The notes beneath the pieces are model-generated. The model searched no databases. It was given only the letters and a program-made list of their open reading frames with translations, and had not been told where the DNA came from. From Octopus vulgaris (lineage: Eukaryota): a stretch of 64,000 nucleotides of DNA. The translations under genes were made by a program, and so were the position numbers. The stretch is taken from positions 33,108,001-33,172,000 of the forward strand of contig OX597824.1 in the NCBI GenBank assembly GCA_951406725.2, in the 5' to 3' direction. Shown here piece after piece: positions 11,561 through 48,700 of this stretch (position 1 is its first letter; every line of letters begins with the position of its first letter).

Positions 11561-11623
11561 AGATAACCGAAGAGATGGTGTTGTGGATTTCCACTTCGGC
11601 ATCTGAAACTCAGAGTTTTATCT
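11561..11623 (+). ncRNA. Type I hammerhead ribozyme in the PLE pseudo-LTR (variant core)
   Basis: Helix I AGAUAA/UUAUCU, core CCGAAGA, helix II GAUG/CAUC with inner GUGGA/UCCAC, extra U, GAA, helix III ACUC-A-GAGU. Predicted cleavage after GUU at 11617. Confidence 0.75.
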
Positions 11624-11920
11624 TGACTACCGAGTAATGTAACATATTGTATAGATAAATTTCCTCTATTTACATAATATTGAGGTCTCTTTCTTTCTTT
11701 TGTTATCTTACCGTTTTATCAATATATATACATATATATGTATATATATACATACATACAAACATACATACATGCATACATACATACATACATACATACA
11801 TACATACATACATACATACATACATACACATATGTATATACACATACATATATATATATATGTGCATATATATACATACATACACACACACACACACACA
11901 CACACACACATATTTATATA

Positions 11921-42700: not shown

Positions 42701-45700
42701 TGCATTTAAGGACATATTTCAGTCCGTTGGACTTCATCAGCACAGTAGCCTAACCAAATCTGTGATTCAGTTGACATAGATTTTTACTAATAGAAAAAGA
42801 GTTACAAATAATTTCTGAATTGTAAAATTTGCATAATCAAAAGTATAATGCATTGAGAAAAATAATTGAAATGGGTTAATGGCATGAATTAGGTAATTTA
42901 TTAAATTAAATAGCGATGTGTTGATATTTCAATTAATTGGGAATTTTTTTATATACAGCATTTAGTACATTACATTTTGAATTAATTATTCATAGTCATG
43001 CCATTGGTCTATTTAAGTTGTGTTCCTTAGCTCATTTGTGTTTAAATAGTATCAGCTTAGATTGGTAATGATTTTGAATATAATTCCACAGTCATATGAT
43101 TTGAAAGACAATTTTTTCAAAAATTGCTTATCTGATACCGTAGTACAAGAAATGTTTAGACTCTTTGAGATTGCTTCTTGTAAATATCCTCTAAAATACT
43201 GCCATTATCATGACAGTCTCCCCTTTTGCTATCAAAAGTTAATCTATGAACACACCAAACAATATCCTAGTTATTGATTTCATTAATCGAGCAACAAGCT
43301 AATTTGTACTGTTCAAGCTAGAAGTGATTATTTAATTGAACTGATAGTGTAGAAATCAATTATAGCAGTTCCTTAACTGACTGTTGCAATTGAAACTGTG
43401 AATGCGATATTGGTTGATTTGTAGGTTAAACTGGGGAAGTCAAAGATAATTTATATATAGATAATTTATATATAGACAATTTATATATACATACACATAA
43501 TTAAGTTATGTTTATGTAAGCATAACAAGAGCATAAAAGTGTTATGTGGGTTAAATGTCTGTGTATTCATGTAGAACATGAAATAATGGTTTTCAATTTT
43601 AGCCCAAGGCTAACAGTTTTAGTGGGAAGTGGTTGATGCTACTGATCATTAGTACTTGACTGGTATCTTATTTTATTGACCCCAGAGAGTGAAAGGTAAA
43701 GTCAACTTTGGTAGCATCAGAATATAAACAACTGGAAGAAATGCCTTTAAACATTTTGTCTGATGTGCTAACGATTCTGCCAGCTCCCTGCCTTAAGAAC
43801 AAGAAATAATAAAAAAGATGGAGAGCCATTCCAAAATTTAGTAACTGCTCCTATGAAAGAGACAAAGATCTTTGGTGGGTTCTTGAAAGACAAGCACAAT
43901 ATTTTCGTGAAAATGCAAGAATAAGATTAGACGTTTAAAACAGCATTTAAAAGTATCAGTAAGCACTCCAAGAATTTGTGTGGTGGTGGTGGTGGTGGTG
44001 GTGGTGGTGGTGGTGGTAGTAGTAGTAGTAGTAGTAGTAGTAGTTGTGGTAGATGTATTGAAACAGCTATTTTTTTATTACCCATAAATGTGTAATTTTG
44101 CTTGAATTTGTTTTAAAAATTGTATTTGATGAAATTTTGCTTGCATTATGTTCCAGAAAATTCCATTTATCTCTAAAATATTGGGTGGCTTAAATCGCCA
44201 AAGAATAATTACATTTAGTGGATATCCATCCAAATTCAATCCGAGAAGGTAAGTGTTATTAAGTTATCTCTTTGGTTACTTTCTCATTTTTATTTAAGAA
44301 AACTGCATAGATTTAGTTGGACGATTTGCTGATTGCGGAACAGAATATGTATCGGCAAGAGAATGGATGAGGATTACTTTTGAACTCCTTGAACTATACA
44401 TACAAGGTGTCCCAAAATTCACTGATGGGTTTCAGTTTTTAATAACTTCCTTAACTTTGCAAATAAATACATGAAATTTTGATGCAACAACTTGTGTAAA
44501 CAAACTTTTTTTTGTTTTTGGAAGCATCATATGAATCATAAAGACAAGAAAGTAATATTTCAAATGCAGTATAATGGAAATTAATATGCACAAGTCAAAT
44601 TTTGTAACACTACTACATCACATATGAAAAAATGACATTGCTTAAATGCCGGTCATTTTCAGCTTCGCATGCCTGTGCTCTTTCCAAAACTTGCACCATA
44701 ACACCCTCAAGAGTTTCAGACCCCACTTCTCTGGTCTGTCTATTGATGTTCTCCTTCAGTTGCACCAGGGTCTCCAGTTTGTTGATGTAAACCCTCTCTT
44801 TCAGGTATCCCCACAAGAAAAATCCGGGCTAGTCAAGTCTGGGGAACATGAAGGCCAGTTAATATTGCCGTAGTGGGAGATTATTCTCACTCCAAAGCAC
44901 TGCCATAGCAACTGCATTGTTTCTCTTGTGGTATGACCAGTTGCCCCATCTTGCTGGGACTGTGTGTGTGGTCCACTTTGAATGGCCTTCACATTCCCCA
45001 GACTTGACAAGCCCATATTTTTCCTTGTGGAGATACATACATACATATAAAGATAAGATCCAAGGATCAAGGTGTAGGAATTTGGGAACCTTCAAGCAAT
45101 CCATAGAAGATATAAAAAACACAACTTTCAGGAACATTAGTGATTTATTGGTGCAGAAGGTTGTCAATGTTTCCTGTATCAAAGCGCAAAAATGCTGAAA
45201 AAAGTTAATTTTATAGTTCATGGTTAGTAACTGGGGCTGCTGTATATGCAAATGAACATAAAAAATTTTGAATGTTTATTTGCATATATATATAATAATA
45301 ATAATAATAATAATAATAATAATAATAATAGGATGGAATTTATAAACATTTAATGCATTGCTACGCATGTTTCCACAAATCACATGACTTTTGAGATCTC
45401 TGTATTCTTCGGATGATTACAGTGTAGTCTGTAGTATCCTTATATTTATCCTACATTATATTAGTATAACTTGATGCAACCCCAAAAAACTGGTTCACTA
45501 GTCAGCATCATTAGATAGTGACCGGCATTATGGAATAGGAATTTTATTTGCATGTTCAAAATATTACCATAAACGAATTTAAAAGATAAGGTGCAGGAGT
45601 GGCTGTGTGGTAAGAAACTTGCTTCCCAACCACAGGGTTCTGGGTTCAGTCCCACTGCATGGCAACTTGAGCAAGTATCTTCTACTATAGCCTCGGGCTG

Positions 45701-48700
45701 ACCAAAGCCTTGTGGATTTGGCAGATGGAAACTGAAAGAAGCCCATCGTATATATATATATGTATGTATGTATCTGTGTGTCTGTGTTTGTCCCCCGACA
45801 TCACTTGACAACCAATGTTAGTGTGTTTATGTACCCGTAACTTAGCGGTTTGGCAAAGAGGCCAATAGAATAAGTACTAGGCTTACAAAGAATAAGTCCT
45901 CTGGTCAATTTGTTCAACTAAAGGTGGTGCTCCAGCATGGTTGCAGTCACATGACTGAAACAAGTAAAAGAATAAGAGAATATAGGTGTAGTTGTATAGT
46001 AAGAAGCTCACTTCCCAACCATATGGTTCTGGATTCAGTCCAACTGCATGGCACGTTGGGCAAGTGTCTTCTACTACAGCCTCAGGCTGATCAAAGCCTT
46101 GTAGGTGGATTTGGTAGATAGAAACTGAAAGAAGCCCGTTGTATATATATATATATATGTGTGTGTGTGTGTGTGTGTGTGTGTGTGTGTGTTTGTATGT
46201 GTGTGTGTGTATATTCGTGTTTGTGTCTGTGTTTGTCCCTCCCATCATTGCTTGACAACCTATGTCAGTGTGTTTACATCCCTGTGACCTAGTGGTTTGG
46301 CAAATGATACTGATAAAATAAGTACTAGGCTTACAAAGAATAAGTCCTGAGGTCGATTTGTTCAACTAAAGGCGGTGCTCCAGCATGGCGGCAGTCAAAT
46401 GACTGAAGTAAGTAAAAGAATAAAAGAATATCCCTTGGACACAAAGACCTGTTGAGGCAAGCGAAGTCGATATAGAACCTCATCCGACGACAGGCACCCA
46501 TGCCAACCCCCTTTGCTTGTGAAGACATGTTGGGGCAAGCGAAATCGAAATCGAATTGAACCAGCCAGGATCCCTGGTCTGGTGGTACGTAAAAAGCACT
46601 ATCCGACTCGTGGCCGATGCCAGCACCGCCTCGACTGGCTTCCGTGCAGGTGGCACATAAAACACACCAATCCGACCGTGGCCGTTGCCAGCCTCGCCTG
46701 GCACCTGTGCAGGTGGCACGTAAAAAGCACCCACTACACTCACGGAGTGGTTGGCGTTAGGAAGGGCATCCAGCTGTAGAAACATTGCCAGATAAGACTG
46801 GAGCCTGGTGCAGCCTTCTGGCTTCCCAGATCCCTGGTCGAACCGTCCAACCCATGCTAGCATGGAGAACAGACGTTAAACGATGATGATGATGATGATG
46901 ATATATATATATAGAAAAGAAAGTTATTTTATTCCTCCTAGGTAGAAGTATAGGAAAAATAGAAGTTGAAAATGCTCTGAGTACTAGACAGATTCCACTG
47001 AGTGGACACATAGATATATGTGCAAAAAATAAGTCCACCAAATTGCAGGTCTTCCCACTCTACCTATGTTTTAAACAAAGAAAATGCATTCAAACAAAAG
47101 TTCAAACCAAGACTTTACAAACTTCAACAGAGTACATACACAAATAACTATTCACACATAAAATTCATCCTGCCATTTATCATGAGGAAGCTACACTGCT
47201 AACAACCTAAATATTAGCCACTGGGCTACATACAAATGACTTCAGTCCATTCTCCCAACAGATAGAATAAATTTGGAACGCCTTGATTATAGCTAAACAT
47301 GTTCACTCAACCGTGCTGGCCTTCTTTTTAGGCGTAAAATATACTGTCATTTGACACTAATGCATGAACGTAGCGGGAAATGTAAAAAAAGGTTATAAAC
47401 TTGATAATAATAATACTTAATACTATGTTCATTTTCTACAAACACTTGAGAGAAAACATACAGAGCATTGATTGTTGGGACACGGTCAACCAACTGTGTC
47501 AGCTTTAAATTACAACACTAAACATTGTCACTTGATACTAACACGCAAACATAGCAGGGAACCTATAAAAATTTCTAAGACCAATTATGTAACTATCCAC
47601 TATCAATCAAATCTTATTCAAAGCATATACTAATTTGAGCCATGAACTCCCACACGGAAGTCAGAAATAAGACAGCTGCAAATAAGCTATGTCTTTCTGT
47701 TTAAACTTTTTGAAAATCAGTGTAAACTGTGAAACTAGTTAAAGCTTTAAATATATCAATAAAAAATATTTTAACTATTTTCAGTGCATTTCAACTTCTA
47801 TTTTTCATATATATATACATACATATATATATATATATATATATATATATATATATATATATATATGTATCAAAAGAAAAACAGGACGCAAAGGATTTTG
47901 CGGTACATATGTTTTGGGCTTTATCGAACAACTTATTCTTATATCAATGCATAATTGATATAACAGGTAGATCAAAAGCCTTCTTCAGCTGCGTACAATT
48001 ACCACACCAAAGACATGTATCATATTATAACAGATTTGAGAAAAAGTTTGAGAAAAAACCGAGTTTCATTGGGAAAGTAAATCCTCGTAGGCGTACATGG
48101 TATTGCGAGACTCCAAAACAAATTGTCCATACCATTTTTTCACACACACACACACACACATATATATATATATACATATATATATAAATTAGAAAAAAAA
48201 CAGCTTTCATCAATTCAATAATGAAAATTTAAATTATACCATCTAGAAAATTACATATTATAGAAAGATTAAATACAAGATAAAACATATAATGATGATT
48301 AAGTAATATACAAAATAATTGAATTGATGAAAAGTGGGTTTTTTTCTAATTTATATATATTATATTTTGTGAAAATTGATTTAGTATTTCTAAATTGAAT
48401 TTTTCCCTGTAAGTTTGGAATAATATTCTCTCATATTATTATTATTATTATTATTATTATTATTATTATTATTATTATTATTTCTATTATTATTATTATT
48501 ATTATTATTATTAATATATATATATATATAATTGAAAACCAAGGGGAGAGTGGAGATTTATTCACTTCCAAAACTTTCTTATTAAAAAGTTTTCTGCGGC
48601 ATATATAACAATGTCCAACATATGTTTATACTGTGGCAACTACACATTGCTCTGTATGCAATTATGCATCCTAGTCGCTGCAGCTTCATCAGGGGTCCAT

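Follow-up and report, generated by a model that had tools for sequence, protein, structure and literature searches.

Type I hammerhead motifs of Penelope-like elements in the Octopus vulgaris genome and the palindromic words of their helix III

Hammerhead motifs in the window and their carrier elements

The stretch analyzed here (the window) is 64 kb of the 2.8-Gb Octopus vulgaris genome (227 contigs), namely, positions 33,108,001 to 33,172,000 of contig OX597824.1; it is microsatellite-rich and has a GC content of 36%. It contains hammerhead ribozyme motifs related to Penelope-like elements (PLEs), the helix III of which is formed by a short palindromic sequence (hereafter, the helix III word). 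Hammerheads of families A, B and F2 were located 3' of PLE open reading frames (ORFs), which bears out the PLE origin assumed in a preliminary description of this DNA; the helix III word was constant within a family and self-complementary, with covariation of its positions, and the same words recurred across families.

The preliminary description had listed twelve hammerhead motifs. Hammerhead-derived sequence was present on the strand given in all twelve cases, but only five motifs were complete, while two were doubtful and five were damaged. In their family-level forms, the hammerheads of A, B, F1 and F2 have a complete core with helices I and II. A full core together with a perfect palindrome was found at 11567-11617(+), 15253-15346(+), 27920-27949(+), 28570-28599(+) and 34174-34249(+); the motifs at 16857-16883(-) and 42711-42740(-) were doubtful, and those at 26715-26741(-), 28067-28096(-), 33978-34053(-), 47904-47988(-) and 48617-48692(-) were damaged. 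The palindrome, which had been ascribed to every motif, was broken in three copies, namely, 26715-26741 (ACUCAGUGU), 28067-28096 (ACCGAU) and 33978-34053 (ACAACUGU). The assignment of seven words to one family each did not hold even within the window, where two different elements supply the motifs at 11561 and 27912, both with the same word.

The hammerhead of family B, together with its helix I, occupies positions 11561-11623(+) (motif 11567-11617) and has the core CCGAAGA, a C4 variant, and the helix III word ACUC-A-GAGU; its cut is predicted between positions 11617 and 11618(+), and the sequence is identical at the family B loci L031-L060. It is preceded by two 5'-truncated ORFs of a putative Hydra-clade PLE, one of 564 aa in the inverted arm (8054-9748, -) and one of 466 aa in the direct arm (9965-11365, +), which stops about 200 nt before the hammerhead; the arms form an inverted repeat (7875-9453/9966-11544) with 100% identity. 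In the genome, family B is organized in tandem units of about 2589 bp with a 717-aa frame and is young: of the 150 matches scored for its C-terminal 171 residues, the majority showed 100% identity. Five direct units and one inverted unit form an array at G000:C3:37226137-37238316 (L250). The direct arm in the window starts a few bases from the predicted cut site and then jumps into the ORF (9690-9755), and three other family B loci fold back exactly at the predicted cut.

Family A accounts for motifs 27912 and 26714; its exact pattern gave 4451 matches vs. 0. The former (27920-27949, +) is intact, with a short helix II and the word ACUC-A-GAGU, and the latter (26715-26741, -) is a dead remnant lacking the CUGANGA box. 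The unit of family A is about 3365 bp with a 727-aa frame, and the family is older than B (median identity of 90% vs. about 100%); many of its copies form very small fold-backs in which 10-60 bp separate two hammerheads. The proteins of families A and B were 45% identical over 709 residues and had no Pfam match; YxDD and YxGxT/S motifs were found in them, and some members of their atlas neighbours (0.95-0.96) carried RVT_1 and GIY-YIG. Both proteins contained the RWK, DKT and CxCx5C motifs, which are marks of the Hydra clade of PLEs with a C-terminal endonuclease (EN+) as described by Craig et al. 2021 (PMC8557442). According to these motifs, families A and B are probably Hydra-clade PLEs, with which they also share the hammerhead and (TA)n targets and, judging from the motifs, possibly the C-terminal endonuclease region, and both occur as tandem and inverted copies; it should be noted that members of this clade are generally shorter than 3 kb, whereas the unit of family A is about 3.4 kb.

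Family F1 is represented in the window by a TA-flanked non-coding element of about 210 bp (16754-16960, -; approximate ends) with a single central hammerhead (16857-16883, -; ACGU), in which C3 is changed to U. At least 7008 copies of F1 were found in the genome; they are about 210 bp long and non-coding, with a fixed-looking 5' start, one central type I hammerhead with the word ACGU and TA-tract targets, vs. only 28 tail-to-head junctions, including periods of 215 and 219. F1 thus resembles a mostly monomeric retrozyme-like family. F1 shares with animal non-LTR (long terminal repeat) retrozymes (PMC7229834; bioRxiv 10.64898/2026.07.22.740005) a short non-coding unit, of about 210 bp in F1, with one type I hammerhead; its head-to-tail tandems are rare, and nearly all of its copies are monomers, inserted in (TA)n tracts and bearing a minimal ACGU motif, which sets F1 apart from the retrozymes. 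Further F1 loci were noted at G000:C21:8024410-8024873 and G000:C2:134627268-134627515.

A fold-back of the 3' ends of family F2 occupies positions 28007-28659; its arms are about 90% identical, and its hammerheads point outward. Both have a U3-A8 core, with the palindrome broken at 28067-28096(-) and intact (ACCGGU) at 28570-28599(+). Longer F2 copies, as well as copies of a second ACCGGU family, sit after fragments of CCHH-type GIY-YIG ORFs, and the ORF type of F2 appears Neptune/Nematis-like, judging from its linker. The origin of motif 28567 from a tRNA-derived short interspersed nuclear element, considered because of a by-eye likeness to a common repeat end, was rejected, since F2 follows GIY-YIG fragments instead. 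Motifs of opposite-strand pairs are unable to dimerise within one transcript because of their strand.

The remaining motifs are assigned by type. The hammerhead at 34174-34249(+) has a full core, a long helix II, a weak helix I and the word ACAGCUGU; its inverted partner at 33978-34053(-) is decayed, with AAAA instead of GAAA (G12 lost), and the two form an old pair that is 67% identical. An intact core and a long helix II were found at 15253-15346(+) (ACAAUUGU), which had no homologue within the sample. The doubtful motif at 42711-42740(-) has a core, a 5-bp helix II, the word AUAUGU and almost no helix I, and had no relative in the sample. G12 is lost in both decayed hammerheads with the word ACAUAUGU, namely, 47904-47988(-), the relatives of which retain GAAA with ACAUAUGU, ACACGUGU or ACUAUAUGU, and 48617-48692(-), for which a single distant relative was found.

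Helix III words within and between families

Constancy of the word was evaluated using patterns in which helix III was left free, and 100 listed copies of each family were counted by eye. The word ACGU was found in 93 of the 100 F1 copies and ACCGGU in 65 of the 100 F2 copies; 24 other F2 copies had single CpG transitions, and none had another palindrome. Thus, the palindrome is constant inside a family, as had been proposed, and inserted copies decay without visible selection.

The larger sample used in the analysis of words was partly hand-picked, with 40 regions chosen by eye from pattern lists; therefore, the palindrome and sharing tests were repeated on small unbiased samples (22 and 27 groups). 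In the unbiased regions, words of at least 6 nt were strictly self-complementary in 11 of 20 groups (null 1.8, maximum 8 in 5000) and, with G-U pairs allowed, in 17 of 20 (null 3.9, maximum 10). In the larger sample, all four Watson-Crick pair types occurred at both inner positions. The words ranged from 4 to 12 nt and were mostly 8 nt long; the 12-nt words ACUAUGCAUAGU and ACGAUGCAUUGU (L203:2150 and L249, respectively) could also fold as monomers. Series of words were found inside single groups, namely, ACAUGUGU/ACAUAUGU/ACACGUGU, ACGAUCGU/ACGAUUGU/ACAAUUGU and ACGCGU/ACAUGU; their steps are CpG transitions and G-U wobbles, and pairing with neighbouring words is predicted for the wobble forms. 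Two of the seven words listed previously, ACAAUUGU and ACAUAUGU, are a double CpG step away from other words of the genome.

The proposed family specificity of the palindrome was not upheld: the words are constant within a family yet not unique to one. Among 32 groups with perfect words in the partly hand-picked sample, 19 distinct words were found, and in 21 of these groups the word was common to another group. The word ACAGCUGU occurred in five groups, ACAAUUGU and ACCAUGGU in three groups each, and ACGU, ACCGGU and ACUAGU in two each; families A and B share ACUC-A-GAGU, while their helices I and II are unrelated. Relative to a uniform draw of palindromes of equal length, same-word pairs were in excess in the evenly spaced regions (7 vs. 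2.2 expected, P 0.002), in these regions combined with flanks of family-targeted loci (10 vs. 4.1, P 0.006) and in the partly hand-picked sample (21 vs. 12.6, P 0.016), although the groups are non-independent and several ACAGCUGU groups have helix I letters in common. Selection for distinct words would yield fewer shared words, and hence the observed sharing is the opposite of what it predicts; the excess was likely caused by inheritance.

Pairing between families and the origin of the words

In a dimer of type I topology, pairing joins position 15 of each molecule to position 16 of its partner; helix I is therefore strand-swapped, its 5' strand coming from one partner and its 3' strand from the other. 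With 4 pairs in both cross-helices as the threshold for compatibility, helix I was compatible in most pairs drawn from one family (287 of 309), but in few of the same-word pairs (3 of 21) and of the different-word pairs (6 of 475). Helix I alone excluded 487 of 496 group pairs, and both helix I and the word matched in 3 of 496; the helix I cross-scores between families A and B were 0 and 0. As a match would be needed in helix I as well as in helix III, cleavage is predicted to be largely own-family without a selected code. Consequently, the idea that distinct palindromes let each family activate only its own ribozymes may hold as to the mostly own-family outcome, as predicted, but not as to the palindrome being the code; restriction of cleavage to the family would be a by-product of the divergence of helices I and III and of tandem transcription, as far as sequence comparison indicates.

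The most probable explanation, with a probability of about 0.7, is that the motifs are type I hammerheads which several PLE families carry at their 3' ends, left in the window mostly in short dead insertions, and that helix III is an inherited, slowly drifting dimer interface and not a selected family code. In a transcript running through tandem units, two neighbouring motifs would pair via helix III and swap helix I, and each paired motif would cut, releasing RNA of unit length. The words would change by way of G-U wobble intermediates and CpG decay, with related lineages retaining one word.

Several observations weigh against this explanation. PLE ORFs are tied to some families only, and the motifs at 15247, 34171, 42710, 47900 and 48614 were assigned by motif type. 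Family B and most F1 copies have the C4 core, and the commonest form of family A has a helix II of 2 bp. The words are predicted to be nearly orthogonal: with outer pairs forced, 150 of the 153 different-word pairs fell short of the mean homodimer by 1.5 kcal/mol or more in the prediction, in accordance with the suggestion that different palindromes pair poorly. Some related groups differ in their word (ACCAUGGU/ACCGGU and ACAUGCAUGU/ACUAGU), as expected of a code. The excess sharing, if it reflects old ancestry, may mask selection among co-active families, and the co-active pair considered was A and B only, of which A is the older.

It is quite unlikely that the words constitute a selected self/non-self code, in which co-active families are pushed apart to avoid unproductive or inhibitory cross-pairing. 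Such a code would account for the constancy of the word within a family, the number of distinct words, the poor predicted pairing between them and the different words of some related groups, whereas sharing exceeded the random level in all three samples, A and B have one word in common, ACGU, which offers no coding room, is used by at least two abundant families, and the families are already separated by helix I. A related possibility, which also appears quite improbable, is that helices I and III together form a two-part lock under selection with dozens of incompatible pairings, where foreign RNAs with the same word would act as decoys preventing cleavage and solitary F1-like elements would be activated in trans by partners that match them; if true, this would mean kin recognition between transposon RNAs through base pairing alone. 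Many of the ribozymes might instead act as monomers, with words of 8-12 nt folded as a hairpin helix III of 2-4 bp, of which the palindrome would partly be the stem. This is unlikely: words as long as 10-12 nt do occur, and efficient monomer cleavage has been described for invertebrate retrozyme hammerheads whose helix III is 2 bp long (PMC7229834), but the loop positions, too, are self-complementary, which a hairpin does not need, no stable hairpin can be closed by ACGU or ACCGGU, and a minimal PLE hammerhead showed no activity in monomeric form (PMC4209133).

The suggestion that the motifs no longer cleave usefully and are passengers or a structural signal for the protein of the element is very improbable, although several features of the core and of the junctions are in line with it. 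The C4 core (CCGANGA) is fixed in family B, which is young, predominates in F1 and was seen in 10 of 42 unbiased matches; this variant lowers activity in vitro, yet is tolerated in a viroid (PMC3088659). Helix II of family A is weak, insertions run 35-105 nt beyond the cut site, and Naiads thrive without hammerheads (PMC8557442). The 5' junctions of family B, counted by eye in 67 rows, showed about 10 events (three of them perfect fold-backs) at the predicted cut vs. 1-8 at each of six upstream positions, and those of family A showed no excess there in the first 100 of 141 rows, i.e., no clear pile-up was found; since the comparison covers upstream positions only, junction footprints were not used as evidence. 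Loss of useful cleavage is hard to reconcile with the covariation by which dozens of groups preserve the core, all three helices and the palindrome, including the U3-A8 swap.

The commonest family A hammerhead (L001-L030) has an A-A mismatch at the base of its 2-bp helix II. In four sequencing runs of uncertain type, one 2586-nt contig spans the 11561 hammerhead site; as contigs cannot reveal ends, it was not used. At 11562-11624, contig depth was far above that of the ORF in three of these four runs, with related short elements as the probable source.

Abundance, related systems and other features of the window

The abundance of motifs was estimated using a descriptor comprising the core, helix I, helix II and, for helix III, the outer AC...GU alone, so that no inner palindrome was demanded. 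In the window it gave five matches (four of the twelve motifs and 47710), whereas 100 dinucleotide shuffles averaged 0.03; in 77 evenly spaced 10-kb regions (770 kb) it gave 42 matches vs. 0-2 in 10 shuffles. A chance origin of the motifs was rejected on the basis of the shuffles, a control proposed earlier, and the window is typical of the genome. The density of intact motifs was 1 per 18 kb, which extrapolates from the evenly spaced regions to about 150,000 in the genome and agrees with the very large number anticipated. When decayed copies were included (BLAST), at least 113 sites were found in 770 kb, i.e., 1 per 6.8 kb, close to the roughly 1 per 5 kb first estimated. Genome-wide patterns gave 126,435 matches for the C3-G8 core vs. 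54,569 for the reversed control and 69,954 for the U3-A8 core vs. 35,736 for the control; these counts include overlaps and miss forms with a long helix II. The descriptor match outside the twelve motifs (47710-47739, +; U3-A8 core, ACUAGU) had no relatives and may be due to chance. A scan of the window against Rfam showed no hammerhead family among the 150 of 211 matches listed, which were microRNA-like or similar and lay on simple repeats.

PLE hammerheads, their palindromes and their cleavage as dimers are already known (PMC4209133, PMC3088659). Cervera and de la Pena 2014 (PMC4209133) described type I motifs with a palindromic 15.2-16.2 plus loop 3, covarying families, the U3-A8 core, copies that are mostly truncated and solitary, pairs on opposite strands at distances of 100-700 bp and a dimer model, which correspond to the octopus motifs, and also reported weak cleavage by dimers. 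In contrast, helix III in the octopus is longer (mostly 8 and up to 12 nt), helix II often reaches 40-100 nt, the C4 core is common, and the numbers are about 10^5 vs. 10^3-10^4. The hammerheads with a small palindromic helix III covered by the reviews PMC6765202 and PMC6466107 belong to the same class. Several palindromes capable of dimerisation are already listed among the repeat-type hammerheads of Perreault et al. 2011 (PMC3088659, legend of Fig. S8), where, unlike in the octopus set, they are not linked to PLE families or checked for sharing in the available text. In the axolotl, 126,247 hammerhead motifs were reported (Cervera 2020, PMC7229834), and retrozymes are considered to be derived from PLEs (Li et al. 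2026, bioRxiv 10.64898/2026.07.22.740005). Neither a family-by-word table nor a study testing a family code or heterodimers was found in the literature, with supplements and most subscription papers outside the scope of the search. The present data add to the described class a genome very rich in hammerheads, with about 10^5 intact motifs in dozens of lineages and words of 4-12 nt, and answer the idea of a code mostly in the negative. A natural panel for comparing cleavage of homo- and heterodimers is available in families A and B, which have one word in common but differ in helix I, and in related families that differ in word; young tandem family B lends itself to studying whether PLE hammerheads cut in vivo.

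Among the other features of the window are decayed PLE ORF fragments at 39617-39932(+) and 63569-63904(+), one of them B-like and the other CCHH-type. Fragments with RVT_1 and zf-RVT of the long interspersed nuclear element type and two transposase-like frames were found at 34698-35669(-), 49351-49728(-) and 35771-36511(+); judging by eye, these two frames resemble a broken Tc1/mariner transposase.

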